Origin: an uncultured Nitrospiraceae bacterium
GTDB lineage: Bacteria > Nitrospirota > Nitrospiria > Nitrospirales > Nitrospiraceae
DNA: 64,000 nucleotides
Direction of reading: 5' to 3'
Assembly (NCBI GenBank): GCA_963846575.1
Contig: CAWJWJ010000001.1
Location: forward strand, 608,001-672,000
Shown here: piece after piece, positions 13,475 through 21,518 of the stretch
Layout: the number at the start of each line of letters is the position of its first letter
How positions within the stretch are numbered: the stretch's first letter is position 1
Position numbers and translations under genes: made by a program
Notes under the pieces: model-generated
The model's input: only the letters and a program-made list of their open reading frames with translations
Told to the model about the DNA's origin: nothing
Database searches by the model: none

Positions 13475-13588
13475 CTACGGTTTCTTCTTTTTCTTGTCGG
13501 CAGGGTTATCGGAAAAGAGCAACCAGGCGAGGACGACGAAGCCGATCGCAACACCCGTGACCGCCAGCCATGTGCCGAGTTTGTCCAT
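13475..13588 (-). CDS. 37-aa single-TM peptide MDKLGTWLAVTGVAIGFVVLAWLLFSDNPADKKKKKP
   Basis: Below the ORF-track cutoff. TAATG overlap with the ybgC stop, GAGGAG RBS, TM helix and poly-Lys tail. Confidence 0.7.
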   Translation of the reverse strand: MDKLGTWLAVTGVAIGFVVLAWLLFSDNPADKKKKKP

Positions 13589-13989
13589 TAGCTCCTCGTC
13601 TGTGGGGGTCCTTGTAACGCAGCCAGCGTGACTGTGTCGAGACGCGTCACTTTCAAATCATCGCCCACCGGCACGAGCTTGGCCGATCCTTCGACCACCA
13701 GGCGCCCGCTGACCCGTTCCCGCACGACGTGGGCAAAGGTGATGGAAGCCTGGCCCACTGCGGCCAGATTTGTCTCGACGGTCAAGGTATCACCATACCG
13801 GGCAGGCGAGCGATAGTCCAGTTCCGCATGCACGACCATGAACTGCCTGCCCTGATTGCGGAGCCCCGCTACCGAAACACCTCGGTCCTCGAGATACTGC
13901 GTCCTCGCCCGCTCGAAATATTTCAGATAATTGGCGTAGTACACTACCCCGCCGCAATCGGTGTCTTCGTAGTAGATCCGTATGTCCAT
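13588..13989 (-). CDS. ybgC: YbgC/FadM-family acyl-CoA thioesterase
   Basis: RIYYEDTDCGGVVYYANYLKYFERAR. Confidence 0.9.
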   Translation of the reverse strand: MDIRIYYEDTDCGGVVYYANYLKYFERARTQYLEDRGVSVAGLRNQGRQFMVVHAELDYRSPARYGDTLTVETNLAAVGQASITFAHVVRERVSGRLVVEGSAKLVPVGDDLKVTRLDTVTLAALQGPPQTRS

Positions 13990-14057
13990 GGAATGTCGAG
14001 CGGCGTCTCTCGTCACCCGGTCCTCGTCAGCGCATGCGTCTCATGATCCACGGGACG

Positions 14058-15314
14058 CTAAAGCGCCAACGTCGGGAACTTCGGCAAGGCAGACTCGCTC
14101 ACGCCGGTGATTTTCATGACCACGTCGGACAACTGCTGTACCCGCTCGGATTTGATCGCCTCGAATCCATGACCGAGAATGGCGTGGTTGGCGGCATCGA
14201 GCAGCGGCTTCATCTTCGGCCAGTCACGAAGAAACGCTTGGCCCATCTGGTCCCCAAGCCCCGCAAGCGCGCGAAACTGACCCTGCAACGGCAATTTGTA
14301 TTTCCCGTCCACGTCGTCCTGATAACAGGTGCGGCAGGTCTCACGTAGCGCCTCCGGAAGCTGGTCCGGCTGCACGTCCCAGGTCTTGATCTTGTACTGT
14401 TTGAACAGCTGACGCTGAGCGGAGGCTTCCAGCGCGCGCAGGAGGGCCACCATGGCCCGCTCGGGATCGTGGTCGAGCTGGGCACGACGGTGTGCGTGGG
14501 CTAAAAGGTCAAGCGCGACGCCCTCTTTGACCTCGGCAGGGTCGAGGACGAGCCGTTCCAGAAATCCACTGTTCGCCTTGATGAACGGGAGCAGCGCCTT
14601 CAGTCCGGGCGGCCCGCCCCACAACGACGCCATGTCGAGTGCCTTCAGCGAGGTCTTGAGTTTTTCCCAGGCCTGCCGGTAATGAAATTGTTCCCAGAGC
14701 GCATAACCTACCGCGAGGTCGCCTAAGGCGCGATAGAGCGGCTTCTGCCCCCCGCTCACGCGAGCTTCCAAAGTATGGAACAGAATGGACGCAGCCCTGA
14801 ACGATCCGTGATTGAACGCTCCGCACGCTTCCTTGCGAACGCCGACCGCCGCTTCATCCCAGGGGTTGCCTTGCAGCCAGCGCTTGGCATGGCCGTCGAT
14901 GACAATTGCTTCGTCGGCCTCCGGCCCCGCGACATCGACCAGGCTGATGACGCGCGAGGTCCAGGGTTGACAGGCAGAGGCCAGCGCTGCCCCCATCGCC
15001 GATGTCGCTCCGGTGAGATCCACGACCAGGTCGCCGACGTGCACATCCCAGGCTTGGAACAGGTCCTGGAGGGAGCGCGACAGAGCCTGGTGGCAGGCGA
15101 TCACATCCGCCGCATCAGGGGTGACCACCCAGTCCCATCGCTTCGGCATCTGCTGCACCTGTGGCTGCACCGCCTCTTCGACCAGCATCTTGGCCGATTC
15201 CGGCACAAAGAAGCAGAGCAATTCCGGCTGCAACCGGTTGATCACGTAGGCCGCCAGGGACGGGGCGTCCGTGAAGGCGACGACGAGGGCTTTGACGGGC
15301 GTATCCGACGGCAT
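14058..15314 (-). CDS. TIGR02710-like CARF-HEPN protein, orphan, with degenerate motifs
   Basis: CARF-like N-terminus (VVDLTGATSAM, NP motif), W..F.Y..A, DLLA.A.RR, RALE..AQ..L, N..ILGHG. Confidence 0.75.
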   Translation of the reverse strand: MPSDTPVKALVVAFTDAPSLAAYVINRLQPELLCFFVPESAKMLVEEAVQPQVQQMPKRWDWVVTPDAADVIACHQALSRSLQDLFQAWDVHVGDLVVDLTGATSAMGAALASACQPWTSRVISLVDVAGPEADEAIVIDGHAKRWLQGNPWDEAAVGVRKEACGAFNHGSFRAASILFHTLEARVSGGQKPLYRALGDLAVGYALWEQFHYRQAWEKLKTSLKALDMASLWGGPPGLKALLPFIKANSGFLERLVLDPAEVKEGVALDLLAHAHRRAQLDHDPERAMVALLRALEASAQRQLFKQYKIKTWDVQPDQLPEALRETCRTCYQDDVDGKYKLPLQGQFRALAGLGDQMGQAFLRDWPKMKPLLDAANHAILGHGFEAIKSERVQQLSDVVMKITGVSESALPKFPTLAL

Positions 15315-15323
15315 GATCCGCGG

Positions 15324-15353
15324 ACTATACCATCGCACTCCGCGCCGGTTCAA
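15324..15353 (-). promoter_or_regulatory. sigma70-type promoter with a very short leader
   Basis: TTGAAC-18 nt-TATAGT (extended -10 TG), 9 nt before ATG 15314. Confidence 0.55.
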
Positions 15354-15513
15354 TGAACGGGGTTCGCACGGGTTCTTGTCGGAGCAGAGACCATCGTGAG
15401 CCCTGTCAACGAGCCGTGCCACCCTGGCCGCAACTTGTTCTCAAGAAACGGGACAAAGACGACCAGGCGGGACCGGAGTGGCATTTCCGGCCGGAGGAGG
15501 TCGGACTTCTCGC

Positions 15514-16566
15514 TCACCTGTCCCCCCCTGTGTGCCGTGGTTCACCGCCCGGCGGCAACGCCTCGTGCCCGAATATCGCGTGCCGTTTGAACACCCGGAG
15601 GAGATAGTAGAGCGATGGAAACAACAGGAGGCCTCCGACAGACATGGCGAGGAGGAGCCACCGGAGCGTCGGCTCCGGCGCAGCCGCCATGGAGATCGTC
15701 AGGTGCGGCGGGACGAGGTAGGGAAATTGCGCGAACGCCCAGGCCCAGATCGTCAACGTGACCTGCCCGACGATGCAGAGCCGCGCCCATCGCAAGCGTT
15801 TTTGCCAGAGGCACAGCAGTCCGGCAAGACCGGCGGCCGCAGTCCCGAACTGGACGGCCGCTCCCCACACGGTGCCGGTCAAGGCGTCCCATACGATGGG
15901 CGCGCCGCTTCGCGACGCCAGCAAGACCGTCTCCTCCAGCAACGAGGCCGCCAGTCCAGCCGTGATGGCGCGCCAGCGAAAGTCTTCCCTGAGCCTGTCG
16001 TCGACCGCCTCAACGGCCAGATAGGCCGCCGCCAGGTAAGAGACCAAGACGAGGGTAAAGAGGCCGACGAGAAAGGGGAACCATTGCAGCCAAGGGCTGA
16101 CGAAGGCTGGAACAAACCCTCCGGCGACGGGAGGGAGGCCACCGGCGATCGTGCCGATCACCACGCCGAGCCAGAAGGGCGTCAACAGGCTGGTCAGGGC
16201 GAACAGCCCTTCCCAGTGGGGGTGGAGCCTGCCGAACGAGACGTCCGCATGGCGAAGGGCGAATGAGGCGCCCCGTAAGACGATGCCGATCAGCAACAGG
16301 GTCAGAGGGATGTACAGGCTGGTTACGATGGCGGTGAAGGCGGCGGGAAAGGCGGTGAAGAGCAGCATCAGCACGAAGATCAGCCAGACATGGTTGGCCT
16401 CCCAGATCGGCACCAAGGCCTCGTCGATGAAGGCCCGGTACACCTTCGAGCGCTCGCCTCCCGCAAACAGGAACCAGGCCCCGGCTCCATAGTCCGCACC
16501 GCCCGTCAATACATAGACCGTCAGGGCCATCAGTAACGCGCCGGCGATGATCAGTTCCAGGCTCAT
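15514..16566 (-). CDS. cydB: cytochrome bd ubiquinol oxidase subunit II
   Basis: GADYGAG, PIWEANHVWL, RG.SF..R, QFPYL. ATGA overlap with cydA. Confidence 0.92.
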   Translation of the reverse strand: MSLELIIAGALLMALTVYVLTGGADYGAGAWFLFAGGERSKVYRAFIDEALVPIWEANHVWLIFVLMLLFTAFPAAFTAIVTSLYIPLTLLLIGIVLRGASFALRHADVSFGRLHPHWEGLFALTSLLTPFWLGVVIGTIAGGLPPVAGGFVPAFVSPWLQWFPFLVGLFTLVLVSYLAAAYLAVEAVDDRLREDFRWRAITAGLAASLLEETVLLASRSGAPIVWDALTGTVWGAAVQFGTAAAGLAGLLCLWQKRLRWARLCIVGQVTLTIWAWAFAQFPYLVPPHLTISMAAAPEPTLRWLLLAMSVGGLLLFPSLYYLLRVFKRHAIFGHEALPPGGEPRHTGGDR

Positions 16567-17945
16567 TCTGGGTTGCTCGTCGTCCCGGAGACCGGCACGG
16601 TCCCGGCCCGGCCGCGCGAATCTCCGTGTTTCTGCCGTCCCGGCGTGATGGGAGGACTTGCTCCGATCTGGTGGAACAGCACCCAGACCACGATGGTTGC
16701 CAGAAACAGATAGAGCGCCCCGAAGAAAATCAGAGGCACGACGAGGCCGGGTACGGGCGTCACGGCGTCCGCCGTTCGCATCACGCCCGTGATAATCCAG
16801 GGTTGTCGTCCGACCTCCGTGGCCGTCCATCCCGCCTCGATCGCGAGAAATCCCAGCGGCGTGCTGCCCACCATGGCCCAGAGAAAACGTCGCGAACCTG
16901 TCATGGATCCGTCCCGCCACCAGAGCCAGCTGCCCCATAACGCGACGCCCGCCATCCAGACTCCGGTCAGGACCATGAGCTGAAACGCCGTGCGAACGAT
17001 GGCAACCGGCGGCCACTCCTCGCGCGGGACGGCATCCAGCCCGGTCACGGTCGCATGGGGGTCCAAGTACAGCATGAGGCTCAGGGCATAGGGGATCTCA
17101 ATGGCATAACGCAGCCGGCCCTGCTCCAGATCCGCCAGGCCTCCCAGCCGAAACGGCGCGCCTGATTCTGTAACAAACTGGCCCTCGAACGCCGCCAGTT
17201 TGGCCGGCTGATGGTCGGCGACGGCCTTCGCCAGAATATCGCCGCTCACCGGCTGGAAGAGCGCGCTGACGCCGCCGACCACACAGGCGATAGCAAAGGC
17301 GCGCCGATGGAGCCGACTGTCTGGATCGCGAAGCAACTGAAAGGCATGGATGCCGGCGACGGCGAACCCGGTCGCCGCATAGGCGGCCAGCACCATGTGG
17401 GGGACTTGAAACAGACCCGACGGATTCAGCATGGCCGCGATGGGGTCGATGTCGAGAGGCTGGGCATCGACGAGGCGAAATCCGCGCGGAGTCTGCATCC
17501 ATCCGTTGGCCAGCACGACGAAGACTGCCGAAGCGATGCCGCTGAGCGCCACGACGATACCCGCCGCCAGATGCGCCGCAGGAGTAAGCCACCGCCATCC
17601 GTAGAGATACAGACCGAGAAAGATCGCCTCGGCGAAGAACGCGAACCCTTCCAAGGTAAAGGCCAGTCCGATGACCGGGCCTGCCCAGGCCATGAACCCG
17701 GGCCAGAGCAGCCCGAGTTGAAACGACAGGATGGTGCCGGAGATGGCCCCGATCGCGAACAGAACCGCCGTTTTCTTCGCCCACCGTTTCGTCAGCGTCA
17801 GGTATACGTCTTCCCCTGTTCGCAGCCAGCGCCACTCGGCGATCACCATCAAGAGCGGCAGGCCCATCCCCACCACCGCAAAGATGATGTGGAACGCCAG
17901 CGACATCGCCATCAACGATCGGGCTGCGAGGAGTTCCGGTATCAT
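16563..17945 (-). CDS. cydA: cytochrome bd ubiquinol oxidase subunit I (short Q-loop)
   Basis: FHII, EGFAFF.E, NGWMQTP, HM, QPAKLAA.EG, GW..TEVGRQPW. RBS GGAGG. Confidence 0.95.
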   Translation of the reverse strand: MIPELLAARSLMAMSLAFHIIFAVVGMGLPLLMVIAEWRWLRTGEDVYLTLTKRWAKKTAVLFAIGAISGTILSFQLGLLWPGFMAWAGPVIGLAFTLEGFAFFAEAIFLGLYLYGWRWLTPAAHLAAGIVVALSGIASAVFVVLANGWMQTPRGFRLVDAQPLDIDPIAAMLNPSGLFQVPHMVLAAYAATGFAVAGIHAFQLLRDPDSRLHRRAFAIACVVGGVSALFQPVSGDILAKAVADHQPAKLAAFEGQFVTESGAPFRLGGLADLEQGRLRYAIEIPYALSLMLYLDPHATVTGLDAVPREEWPPVAIVRTAFQLMVLTGVWMAGVALWGSWLWWRDGSMTGSRRFLWAMVGSTPLGFLAIEAGWTATEVGRQPWIITGVMRTADAVTPVPGLVVPLIFFGALYLFLATIVVWVLFHQIGASPPITPGRQKHGDSRGRAGTVPVSGTTSNPE

Positions 17946-18497
17946 GCCGCCCTCCGACAGTACGCCGGGAATGTACTCGACGATGACCTCCAGGACGCGG
18001 ACCAGCCATCCGGCGCAAGAGCCGCCCGGCCGGACGGACCGGCAGCGCGCCGCGGAATCAAGCCTGCCGCTGCGGAGCCGTGTGGATCGCGGAGCATCGG
18101 GCGGGAACCCCGCCGTTTCACCACGGCGGGGATTTCCTCCATCGGTAGGCCCTGCAGCAGGGCGTGGTCGTATCCTGATTCCAAGTCCACCCCCTCGCCC
18201 CTGCAGCCGCAGCCTCGTGACCGTTCCAGAGAAAGCAAAACCAGTCCTGTGCGGCGCCATTCACAGGGTATCGTCCACTCACCCACCTCCACAGAGTAAC
18301 AACTAACCGGGTGGTATGATATCCCGCCGCACGGCCGTGCCGGGTTTTTCTCTCGCCTGGTGCTCATCCACCCCTGCCGGAGAATCCGCCTGTTCTTCCG
18401 TAACAACTTCATTTTGTTGACCCTTTCGGGAAAGACGCCTAGACTTTGCCGGTATCGATCATTCATTTCTCCACGATTTCTCTACGCGAGCACACGA

Positions 18498-18932
18498 ATG
18501 GCCTGGTGGATGTGGGCATTTCTGGGATTGGTCCTGCTGGGCGTCGAAATTACGACTCCCGGCGGGTTCTACATTTTCTTCTTCGGACTCTCGTCGCTCG
18601 TGGTGGCGGCGCTTGCGGGATTCGGGATCACTGAAGCGGAATGGGTCCAGTGGCTGCTCTTTTCGGTGATGTCCGTCGCGTCGCTGTTCGTGTTCCGCGG
18701 CCCGCTGCTACGTATGATCAAATCACATGAGGTATCAGGACCGGCGATCGACACCATGATCGGAGAGATCGCCATCCCGCTCGAACCGTTGGCGCCCGGC
18801 AGCACCGGGAAAGCGGAATGTCGCGGTACGGCCTGGACCGCCCATAATGCCGGGCCGGTCGGTCTGGCGAAGGGACAGCGCAGTCTGGTCGATCGGGTCG
18901 AGGGCCTCGCCCTGTGGCTCAAACCGGAATAG
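18498..18932 (+). CDS. NfeD-like membrane protein
   Basis: TM N-terminus and OB-fold-like G..W.A C-terminus, upstream of the SPFH gene. Confidence 0.85.
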   Translation: MAWWMWAFLGLVLLGVEITTPGGFYIFFFGLSSLVVAALAGFGITEAEWVQWLLFSVMSVASLFVFRGPLLRMIKSHEVSGPAIDTMIGEIAIPLEPLAPGSTGKAECRGTAWTAHNAGPVGLAKGQRSLVDRVEGLALWLKPE

Positions 18933-18950
18933 GCTGAGGGAGTTCTCAGG

Positions 18951-19904
18951 ATGGAGGAATCAGGTATGTCAGGTGGATTGATGGTCATGGTCGTCCTGGC
19001 GTTCCTGGTGGTGCTGATCATCGCCAAGACCGCCCGCATTGTCCCGCAACAAAGCGCGTATGTGGTCGAACGATTGGGTCGGTACTCCCGCACCCTGAGT
19101 GCCGGGTTCCACATCCTGATTCCCTTCATCGACGCCGTCCAGTATAAGCACTCACTCAAAGAGACCGCTGTCGATATTCCTGAACAGATCTGCATCACGC
19201 GCGACAACGTGCAGGTCGGGGTAGATGGCATCCTCTACATCAAAGTACTCGACCCGCAACGGGCGTCCTACGGCATCAACGACCATCGCTTCGCCATTAC
19301 CCAGCTGGCTCAGACCACGCTGCGAAGCGAGATCGGCAAGATCGATCTCGACCGGACCTTTGAGGAACGCACCAATATCAACCTGCAGGTTGTCAACGAA
19401 CTCGACAAGGCGTCAGAGCCCTGGGGCATCAAAGTGCTCCGCTACGAAATCAAAAACATCACGCCGCCCAAAGACATTTTGAACGCCATGGAAAAGCAGA
19501 TGCGGGCGGAACGGGAAAAACGTGCCGTCATTCTGGCCTCGGAAGGAGAGCGGGACGCCGCCATCAATCAGGCGGAAGGGGTAAAGCAACAGGTCATCAA
19601 GGCCTCGGAGGCCAGAAAGCAGCAACAAATCAACGAAGCGGAAGGTGCCGCGGCGGCGATCACGGCCATTGCCGCCGCCACGGCAGAAGGCCTGAGAAAG
19701 GTGGCCGAGTCGACTCAAATCCCCGGTGGGTACGAAGCCATCCAACTACGGGTCGCGGAGCAATACATCGGCAAGTTCGGCGAGCTGGCCAAGACCAGCA
19801 ATACCCTGGTCCTGCCGGCGAATGTCGCCGATGTGGGCTCGATGTTGGCGCTAGCCATGAACATGATCACGAAACGTTCCTCCCCGACGCCGCCTGCGAG
19901 ATAA
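18951..19904 (+). CDS. SPFH/stomatin-like (paraslipin/QmcA) protein
   Basis: VVERLGRY, ITRDNV, AQTTLRSEIG, QMRAEREKRA. Confidence 0.93.
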   Translation: MEESGMSGGLMVMVVLAFLVVLIIAKTARIVPQQSAYVVERLGRYSRTLSAGFHILIPFIDAVQYKHSLKETAVDIPEQICITRDNVQVGVDGILYIKVLDPQRASYGINDHRFAITQLAQTTLRSEIGKIDLDRTFEERTNINLQVVNELDKASEPWGIKVLRYEIKNITPPKDILNAMEKQMRAEREKRAVILASEGERDAAINQAEGVKQQVIKASEARKQQQINEAEGAAAAITAIAAATAEGLRKVAESTQIPGGYEAIQLRVAEQYIGKFGELAKTSNTLVLPANVADVGSMLALAMNMITKRSSPTPPAR

Positions 19905-19957: not shown

Positions 19958-20536
19958 ATGAAAGATTTCGTCATCAAGGCGTTCGATGAAAGTGCCGACG
20001 TCAAGCGGCGCTTCGCCCGGGACCACGCCGACAAGATCGGTGAGGTCGCGCAGGTCATCGGGCAGGCCTTTCGAGAGGGACGCAAGGTCCTGCTGTTCGG
20101 CAACGGCGGCAGTGCGACCGACGCCGCACACATGGCGGCCGAATTCGTCGGTCGATACAAGCGGGAACGCGCTCCCTTACCGGCCATTGCTCTCGCCACC
20201 GACATCGCCGCCATCACCTGCATCGCCAACGACTACGGCTTCGAAGCCCTTTTCGCCCGTCAGGTGCTCGCGCACGGCCAGAAAGGCGACGTCGCCATCG
20301 CCATCAGCACGAGCGGCAACTCCCCCAATGTCCTCAAGGGTATCGAAGCGGCCAGATCTCTCGGCCTGACGACGATTGCCTGGACCGGCGGTTCGGGCGG
20401 CAAGCTGGCCGGCCTTGCAGACTATGCCTTTATCGTGCCCTCGACCGTTACCGCCCGCATTCAGGAGAGCCATATCACGTTGGCCCACGTGCTTTGCGAA
20501 CTGATCGAGGACCAGGTTCTTGCCAACCCGGCGTAA
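19958..20536 (+). CDS. gmhA: sedoheptulose-7-phosphate isomerase
   Basis: GNGGSA.DA.H, ND, STSGNS, RIQESH. Confidence 0.95.
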   Translation: MKDFVIKAFDESADVKRRFARDHADKIGEVAQVIGQAFREGRKVLLFGNGGSATDAAHMAAEFVGRYKRERAPLPAIALATDIAAITCIANDYGFEALFARQVLAHGQKGDVAIAISTSGNSPNVLKGIEAARSLGLTTIAWTGGSGGKLAGLADYAFIVPSTVTARIQESHITLAHVLCELIEDQVLANPA

Positions 20537-21518
20537 GCGCACCAGTCACCCTGCCGTCCCTCCCGCGATCATCCAGCCGATAGATACATCGCGCCTGAAG
20601 ACCTATCCGCTCCAGCGACGTCACAGCAAAGTCCAGGTGGCACACTTTGCCAAGGCCTGGCCCGTCGGCCGGTCGTTGAGTCACTTTCTCGACTCGCTTC
20701 CCGACATCCTGGCGGTCAAAACGTTGCGCGAAGTGGCGCAGGCCATCGCGAAGGCCCATCGGCGCGGTCGCCCCGTCATTGTGGGCATGGGCGCCCATGT
20801 GGTGAAGGTGGGGCTGGGGCCGCTCCTGGTGGACCTGATGGAGCGCGGCATCGTCACGGCTCTCGCGATGAACGGCGCCGTGATCATCCACGACTTCGAA
20901 CTGGCCTTCATGGGGCATACATCCGAGGAGGTCGACGCGGAAATCGATTCGGGACGATTCGGCATGGCGGAAGAAACCGGTCGCATGTTGAACGAGGCCA
21001 TCTCGCTGGGCATGAAGGAGGGCCAGGGCCTGGGCGAATCACTCGGGCTCTACATCAATCGCCAAAAACGGCAGTTTCCGCACCGCGCCACCAGCCTGCT
21101 GGCGACCGGAGCGCGCCTGGGTATTCCCGTCACGGTCCATGTGGCCGTCGGGACCGACATCATTCACATGCATCCGTCTGCCGACGGTGCCGCAATCGGT
21201 GCCGGATCACTGCTCGATTTTCGCCGCCTCGCGGCCGTCGTCTCCGCGATGGAAGGCGGAGTCTACCTCAATCTGGGCTCCGCGGTGATCCTACCGGAGG
21301 TGTTCTTGAAAGCCGTCTCCCTTGGACGCAATCTCGGCCACCCGCTCACGAACATCACGACCGTGAATATGGATTTTCTGACGCACTACCGCCCCATGAC
21401 CAACGTCGTGCGCCGTCCTACGCAAAAAGGCGGCAAGGGCTATGCGTTGACCGGGCATCACGAGATCATGGTGCCGCTATTGGCGGCCGCTGTGCTTGAG
21501 GAATTGGCGGGCCAGTGA
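20520..21518 (+). CDS. deoxyhypusine-synthase-like conserved protein
   Basis: GAHVVKVG, NGA..IHD.E, TVHVA.GTDI.H, GSAV..PEVFLK, GHHE. TTG start overlapping gmhA. Confidence 0.7.
   Translation: MPTRRKRTSHPAVPPAIIQPIDTSRLKTYPLQRRHSKVQVAHFAKAWPVGRSLSHFLDSLPDILAVKTLREVAQAIAKAHRRGRPVIVGMGAHVVKVGLGPLLVDLMERGIVTALAMNGAVIIHDFELAFMGHTSEEVDAEIDSGRFGMAEETGRMLNEAISLGMKEGQGLGESLGLYINRQKRQFPHRATSLLATGARLGIPVTVHVAVGTDIIHMHPSADGAAIGAGSLLDFRRLAAVVSAMEGGVYLNLGSAVILPEVFLKAVSLGRNLGHPLTNITTVNMDFLTHYRPMTNVVRRPTQKGGKGYALTGHHEIMVPLLAAAVLEELAGQ

Follow-up and report, generated by a model that had tools for sequence, protein, structure and literature searches.

A Csm6-family gene outside CRISPR loci, without its cA4-binding and RNA-cutting residues and under purifying selection in a Nitrospirota order

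Introduction

Why would a bacterium keep an intact gene for a Csm6-type protein when the residues for sensing and cutting are gone? The question is raised by a gene in a 64,000-nucleotide stretch of DNA (hereafter the window) from an uncultured Nitrospiraceae bacterium (contig CAWJWJ010000001.1, positions 608,001 to 672,000). A sequence-only reading of the window had described an orphan TIGR02710-like CARF-HEPN protein with both functional motifs degenerate, and had proposed domestication to a new ligand or a housekeeping role, or a part as decoy or regulator of cOA signalling. The reading we favour, held with about even confidence, is that this Csm6-family gene lies outside CRISPR loci, has no cA4-binding or RNA-cutting residues, is near-core under purifying selection and likely encodes a non-catalytic binding adaptor.

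The gene and its site

The gene is an intact ORF on the minus strand, from an ATG at 15314 to a stop ending at 14058, and encodes a 418-aa Csm6-derived CARF-6H-HEPN protein, here P0001. The interval first assigned to it, 14058..15353, holds this ORF but ends in the −35 box instead of at the start codon. A longer GTG start at 15422 was rejected because it overlaps the promoter and orthologs begin at the ATG. The features of the locus are as follows:

13588..13989, minus strand: ybgC-family acyl-CoA thioesterase gene, 68 bp downstream of the P0001 gene
14058..15314, minus strand: P0001 gene
14061..14534, minus strand: HEPN domain, residues ~261-418 (PF09670); core retained, catalytic residues gone
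14169..14192, minus strand: former HEPN R-x6-H motif ANHAILGH, residues 375-382; Ala375 is at the position of Arg415 of Thermus thermophilus Csm6 (TtCsm6), His382 at that of His422
14325..14336, minus strand: CxxC (Cys327, Cys330), new in the order
14535..14864, minus strand: helical 6H domain, residues ~151-260 (PF22205); the most constrained domain in the clade
14604..14621, minus strand: clade signature WGGPPG, residues 232-237, common to stand-alone outgroup copies
14733..14762, minus strand: clade signature RVSGGxKPLY, residues 185-194, common to stand-alone outgroup copies
14865..15296, minus strand: CARF Rossmann domain, residues ~7-150; fold retained and ligand pocket degenerate, from CARF structure matches and site rates
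14886..14945, minus strand: residues 124-143, once the loop that clamps the ligand (family YVGGxxRxKxGxGxVxxGxE); no other part evolves as fast today
14994..15020, minus strand: former CARF motif II DLTGATSAM, residues 99-107 (family DxTGGTKxM); Ser105 is at the position of TtCsm6 Lys137
15261..15278, minus strand: former CARF motif I AFTDAP, residues 13-18 (family VGG[S/T]P; TtCsm6 G58-T59-S60)
15324..15353, minus strand: promoter of sigma70 type, TTGAAC-N18-TATAGT with an extended −10 box, 9 bases upstream of the ATG

The site of the P0001 gene is fixed, with gmhA on one side and ybgC on the other. Among 41 orthologous loci, gmhA is divergent to the gene in 38 and ybgC lies downstream in 35, and a cas-family ORF is found in none. 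The promoter, with TG before the −10 box, scores 9/12; as a match in a single sequence it does not exceed chance (1 occurrence, against a mean of 0.6 in shuffled sequence), and what sustains the sigma70-like promoter read from the window is its conservation, TGnTATAGT lying just upstream of the gene in 37/41 loci. The transcript is predicted to be near-leaderless, and co-transcription of the gene with ybgC is likely. In N. moscoviensis, NITMOv2_4618, which abuts ybgC and which we treat as the ortholog from its annotation, length and position, has an RPKM of 69 ± 50, or 0.71 times the median, from very low counts (baseMean 4.5); the other CRISPR-labelled rows in the same supplement table are type I genes (PMC6606698, supplement Table 1).

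Of the 130 genomes sampled from the order, 4 gave no match to the gene. One of these (G102) carries a clean deletion that joins gmhA and ybgC and leaves the promoter intact directly before ybgC (L095:5931-6049), and in two others (G294, G374) neither the ortholog nor ybgC is at the site. The clean deletion and the separate losses show that the gene is dispensable and separable from ybgC; it is not essential everywhere. An obligate partnership with YbgC was rejected since the two genes are lost independently, and promoter conservation was set aside as proof of the gene's importance because the promoter survives deletion of the gene.

Domain architecture and fold

The whole protein scores 129.3 bits against the TIGR02710 profile (curated cut-off 83.9). 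Pfam identifies HEPN (PF09670, E 5e-21) and Csm6_6H (PF22205, E 6e-10), with no match to a CARF domain at E ≤ 1, and an ESM Atlas search returned the same Pfam families only. The PADLOC profile PDLC01812 (CARF1--CARF_HEPN) covers 418/418 positions (E 2.6e-238), so the subfamily had already been clustered earlier. We found no description of it in the literature searched; the cluster may be covered in Makarova 2020, reportedly the source of the CARF1 classes, or in its supplements. The TIGR02710-like identity proposed from the sequence is thereby borne out, and both named domains are present, but the 6H domain between them had been overlooked.

A PDB search with the single P0001 sequence returned nothing, and one with an alignment profile found TtCsm6 (E 7e-24). 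The AlphaFold2 model (pLDDT 95.6, pTM 0.90) has Thermus Csm6 as its best fold match (Foldseek E 8e-13; Z 22, rmsd 6.2, 384 residues aligned), and model residues 5-151 align with the CARF domains of Can2, Cam1 and Card1 (Z 14-15). By profiles and model, then, P0001 has the fold of TtCsm6 (PDB 5FSH, 8JBB, 8JBC, 8JH1), which shows the same CARF-6H(HTH)-HEPN architecture with motif positions that correspond residue for residue (PMC10897365); P0001 differs in being only ~20% identical and in not being linked to type III CRISPR. Modelled alone, the 6H domain matches TtCsm6 (Z 13.2), DUF309 (12.5), Bro1 (11.4), BamD (10.7) and TPR and MIT domains. It resembles the TPR, Bro1, MIT and BamD binding modules (Z 8-11.4 for TPR, Bro1 and BamD), but Z values of 8-12.5 are, by the tool's own scale, those of a common arrangement. 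Matches of TPR-type profiles to the 6H domain fall below significance (best TPR_14, E 0.055, in 2/55; STI-1, E 0.79), and membership of the TPR family was not adopted.

Loss of the CARF and HEPN residues

Mutants of TtCsm6 show what these residues do (PMC10897365): K137A no longer binds cA4, T59A/S60A can no longer be activated, and RNase activity is lost in R415A, in N416A and in H422A; activation is relayed by the 165-179 loop. A profile alignment places these key residues at S105, D16/A17, residues 128-143, A375, N376 and H382 of P0001. The motif readings AFTDAP, DLTGATSAM and ANHAILGH proved correct, at residues 13-18, 99-107 and 375-382. Against TtCsm6, P0001 has no equivalents of G58/T59/S60, T81, G135, K137, Y161, N164, the basic mobile loop, E179 or R415. 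It carries T15-D16-A17, A103 and S105 where CARF motifs I (G-T/G-S) and II (TxGTK) and the cA4-binding Lys would stand, and hence does not have the two intact motifs of a Crn1-type CARF ring nuclease.

The loss of both motifs, first noticed in one protein, is clade-wide. The cA4-binding Lys is found in 0/40 order members and 117/118 distant relatives, most of the latter being cluster representatives without genomic context, and the catalytic HEPN Arg in 0/40 and 118/118. Among 121 close sequences neither residue occurs at either site. With the Arg gone, the HEPN R-x4-6-H catalytic motif is absent from the order members; its His is kept in 34/40 (118/118 in relatives) and replaced by Tyr, Phe, Ala, Gln or Asn in 6 orthologs that are otherwise intact, and its Asn remains in 18/40. 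The erosion reaches further than the earlier reading saw, taking in the ligand-clamping loop, Tyr124, Ser38 and several HEPN residues. The family's Y124, G127, R130 and E143 are gone from the loop, which is hypervariable in place of a mobile cA4 clamp, and 32 family-conserved positions are lost throughout. A CxxC is present in 33/40 order members, and Cys327 in 0/118 relatives. Judged from these residues, P0001 would lack cA4 binding, RNase activity and ring-nuclease activity. By profile it is a TIGR02710 homologue above the family cut-off (PF09670 with PF22205; PADLOC CARF1--CARF_HEPN), but it has neither CRISPR linkage nor either motif, and going by its defining residues or its linkage it is not a working Csm6.

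Independence from type III CRISPR

The source genome is assembled in 2 contigs and is 99.93% complete. Profiles for Cas10, RAMP and Cas1 match nowhere in it (controls matched), a simple repeat scan finds no CRISPR-like array, and the family profile finds no paralogue of P0001. The absence of cas genes and array noted for the 64 kb therefore holds for the whole genome. The cyclases of CBASS- and mCpol-linked CARF/SAVED sensors are likewise missing as far as two cyclase families are concerned, mCpol and SMODS (PF18182, PF18144) being found in 0/5 and 0/5 genomes tested, the source genome included.

We surveyed 400 other genomes of the phylum, 130 of them of the same order, a label that rests on close homologues being named Nitrospira or Nitrospirales. 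The gene is present in 126 of the 130 (86/87 in family f1, 38/41 in f2 and 2/2 in f3); two copies are cut by contig ends, one is split (G018) and one has two stops (G306). Type III RAMPs occur in 10/130 genomes and were not found in 120/130. In 64 genomes selected for a Cas10 profile search the pattern was alike: of those with RAMPs, a single one (G350) went unmatched. The comparison with cas10 that the sequence-only reading had called for thus shows that the orthologs do not track type III: they neither retain the Arg and Lys nor co-occur strictly with such loci, and neither linkage to cas10 or RAMP nor co-occurrence marks them as type III ancillary effectors.

Genomes with type III loci retain the dead copy as well (L081, L077, L038, L042, L043), and several hold a second, armed and distant copy (L061, L064, L067). 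Incoming type III loci carry their own armed TIGR02710 copies (G094, G380, G384), 23-30% identical to the dead one. The CRISPR context of comparison loci was set by Cas10/Cmr matches for two loci (L060, L061) and nearby RAMP matches for five; the Cas names of the ORF families they share are our assumption. No match to the gene was found in 50,697 phage and 72,556 plasmid records. Databases label the orthologs 'CRISPR-associated', and in these genomes neither the label 'CRISPR-associated TIGR02710' nor a CARF profile match indicates type III immunity.

Selection and the shift of constraint

Pairwise dN/dS within the genus, a crude NG86 estimate in which 78/91 pairs have dS under 1.5 (median 1.05), is 0.067 for the P0001 gene, compared with 0.084 for gmhA and 0.113 for ybgC. 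A pseudogene or neutral relic was rejected on this ground, and the values agree with the proposal of a domesticated gene under purifying selection; the selection is strong in a genus with RAMPs in 0/14 genomes. By domain, dN/dS is 0.079 for CARF, 0.040 for 6H, 0.075 for HEPN and 0.29 for the old ligand loop.

Site rates, from 40 order members and 59 of the 118 distant relatives, show where the constraint went. The 11 former cA4-contact sites evolve at a mean rate of 1.60 in the order versus 0.13 in relatives, which puts them at the 69th percentile, faster than average. The former clamping loop runs at 2.46 (92nd percentile) versus 0.57, and the family-conserved HEPN residues 273, 286, 290, 292 and 378 at 1.20 versus 0.06. 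The reverse holds for the RVSGG region (0.42 in the order, 1.76 in relatives) and a WDW at residues 60-62 (0.24 and 1.44). Of 33 sites slow in the order and fast in relatives, 18 lie in residues 170-258; columns conserved at ≥90% number 43/110 in 6H and 22/150 in CARF, the least conserved domain; and tryptophans average 11.4 per protein in the order versus 4.9 in relatives. Constraint has moved from the ligand pocket to the 6H domain and to Trp and Lys positions. The newly conserved sites may be structural.

Stand-alone relatives and the order of loss

Stand-alone relatives of the gene occur in four other families of the phylum, in 7/11 genomes of f22, 3/3 of f13, 6/9 of f11 and 2/2 of f44. 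The f22 copies have GGTK and RNxSILAH intact, with the loop deleted in some; the f13 copies keep both motifs and have a short loop; the f11 copies keep GGT[K/R] and read RERSILGH in HEPN; and the f44 copies have lost both Lys and Arg. Three of the six f11 copies are interrupted, by either decay or sequencing error. A tree of 57 rows, for which the CRISPR-linked copies served as root, nests f22, f13/f11, f44 and the order in turn (support 100/99, 99/94, 98/90, 100/98); its rows were thinned by hand, and a 110-row quick tree agrees. The gene tree follows taxonomy, and recent transfer was rejected on this ground and on the gene's composition, which is like that of gmhA (GC 0.628, GC3 0.773). Many other families of the class are without the gene, so losses or transfers have occurred.

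The armed f22 and f13 copies (loci L052-L057, L054, L126) belong to the same clade as P0001 (100/99) and share its RVSGG and GGPPG signatures and a housekeeping neighbourhood. They differ in keeping GGTK and RNxSILAH, in their neighbours, and in that several of their genomes have type III elsewhere; RAMPs are present in 4/7 (f22), 2/3 (f13), 0/7 (f11) and 0/2 (f44) genomes. The neighbours are NAD kinase and rho in f22, murJ and glmM in f13, and thiC in f44, and because they change at each step the context gives no function. Of 54 sites fixed in the order yet rare in relatives, 26 are common to at least four of five f22 copies and 36 to the f13 copy. This suggests that part of the clade signature predates the loss of the motifs, though shared ancestry alone would also yield such sharing.

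Some of the relatives merit description in their own right. In five f22 loci (L052, L053, L055, L056, L071) the armed Csm6-like gene is divergent from NAD kinase and lies upstream of rho-prfA-murA-his genes, and neither Cas10 nor RAMP was found in the f22 genomes G008 and G054. The armed f22 gene is a candidate for a resident effector acting in trans, or for an RNase that answers a signal of its own. In f28, an unrelated stand-alone TIGR02710-like gene with intact motifs lies beside fmt/def (L068:7422-8717, L069:7920-9227) in genomes with type III loci elsewhere, and is a second escape from CRISPR loci. A copy of the CRISPR-linked clade is found among glycolytic genes (L070:6497-7768); its CARF loop is partly eroded and its HEPN motif intact, and no Cas10 was found in its genome (G353).

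What the protein may do

For P0001 itself, we give a role as a protein-binding adaptor an even chance, and a housekeeping role is plausible. The protein would still fold as a Csm6-like dimer and be made constitutively at a modest level, and its helical-repeat-like 6H domain and newly fixed Trp and Lys positions would bind a macromolecule of the cell; its partner is most probably a protein and probably not YbgC alone. Its history can be proposed as a series of steps. Early in the phylum, a stand-alone armed copy may have come to rest in a housekeeping neighbourhood, from which it could have acted in trans for type III systems that passed through. Next it would have gained the RVSGG and GGPPG signatures, and afterwards it would have lost, step by step, its activation loop, Lys and Arg. 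Taken whole, this path of full domestication, in which the gene left its locus early, gained a new binding surface while armed, shed sensing and catalysis and became a core adaptor throughout the main order of nitrite oxidisers and comammox bacteria, is put forward tentatively, at slightly under an even chance.

Other functions have to be set against the same results. P0001 could be a nuclease-dead RNA binder, an RNA chaperone or guard whose HEPN dimer cleft holds RNA without cutting it. HEPN is still constrained (dN/dS 0.075), R276, R277 and R293 are retained, and basic or aromatic residues are newly fixed (W312, K338, W365, K369, K388, R391 and the 6H lysines), but the mean net charge is 0.0 for HEPN and +1.7 for 6H, and HEPN residues 273, 286, 290, 292 and 378 now drift (1.20 vs 0.06), which makes this reading unlikely. 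That the active site was rebuilt around His382 or the new cysteines is an idea to which we attach only the slimmest probability: His382 (34/40), Glu296 (38/40), Asp373 (40/40) and the CxxC (33/40) are widely kept, yet His382 is replaced in 6 intact orthologs, Asn376 drifts, and the Arg-to-Ala change is a known inactivating one in TtCsm6 (PMC10897365). A pocket remodelled for another nucleotide or an acyl-CoA would fit the adjacency of ybgC (35/41 loci), the retained CARF fold, the new WDW at 60-62 and the common replacements A103 (35/40), P105 (30/40) and D17 (28/40). Ten old CARF motif sites are nearly unchanging within the genus alone, the sole result that favours such remodelling; across the order they drift. 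The former contact sites now evolve at 1.60 vs 0.13, which tells against the new ligand suggested earlier; no region changes faster than the lid loop and no domain is less conserved than CARF; the gene and ybgC are lost independently, and the two cyclases are found in 0/5 genomes, so that a small-molecule sensor is improbable.

The remaining alternatives keep the protein in defence. As a cOA decoy or damper, it would act as a cA4 sponge or as a dominant-negative partner of an incoming Csm6, and type III loci with their own armed copies do enter the order (10/130). The Lys needed for cA4 binding is nevertheless absent in 40/40, no RAMP was found in 120/130 genomes, selection is strong in the genus with 0/14 RAMP, and the armed copies are only 23-30% identical, so the decoy or regulator role proposed from the sequence is scarcely credible. 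A CRISPR-independent component against phage or stress, sensing a phage protein or working with an unlinked effector, would suit the defence ancestry of the gene and its dispensability in some lineages. It is very improbable given the fixed housekeeping site, the near-universal single copy, a taxonomy-like tree unlike those of defence genes, the lack of a match in the phage and plasmid records, and the absence of a remaining catalytic effector.

Exapted nuclease-inactive Cas12 variants and CASTs (PMC12669027) are also CRISPR components without catalysis that are kept for another role. They differ from P0001, an ancillary signalling nuclease by descent that is fixed in a chromosome core, in being modules for effector or guide functions within systems that are mobile or regulatory. 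Stand-alone CARF-nuclease genes have been remarked on (PMC3710099), in-trans signalling has been raised as a possibility (PMC11229360), and the terms CRISPR and CARF are absent from the main text of a comparative-genomics paper on Nitrospirales (PMC12342949). New in this analysis are the ladder of stepwise loss, the swap in site rates, the clean deletion and the N. moscoviensis expression value. Defence genes are usually patchy and short-lived, and here one is near-core in an order central to nitrification. With outgroups that carry armed, half-eroded and dead versions, the order of exaptation, function before or after loss of catalysis, is directly testable. If the proposal is true, P0001 would be a rare pseudo-enzyme in housekeeping service that began as an ancillary effector of CRISPR, and its path could be followed by experiment along its whole length.

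Neighbouring genes

The likely start of ybgC is the ATG at 13989, not the GTG at 14016, and the gene (13588-13989) lies apart from any tol-pal genes among the ORFs inspected. In many genomes the gap between the P0001 ortholog and ybgC is ~440-550 bp and holds an ORF of a 107-129 aa family, presumably four-helix bundles (L072, L075, L076, L078, L079, L050); the insert is absent from the window, where the gap is 68 bp. At 15514-18260 a pair of genes, which we take to be cytochrome bd-like cydAB, lies between the P0001 gene and an NfeD/SPFH-like operon, the two being adjacent in close relatives. At 18360-19904, between gmhA and the P0001 gene, are what we assume to be a small membrane protein gene and an SPFH/band-7-like gene, an arrangement of part of f1 only. 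In most of the order's loci gmhA is followed by a GSU2086-family gene (20520-21518 in the window).
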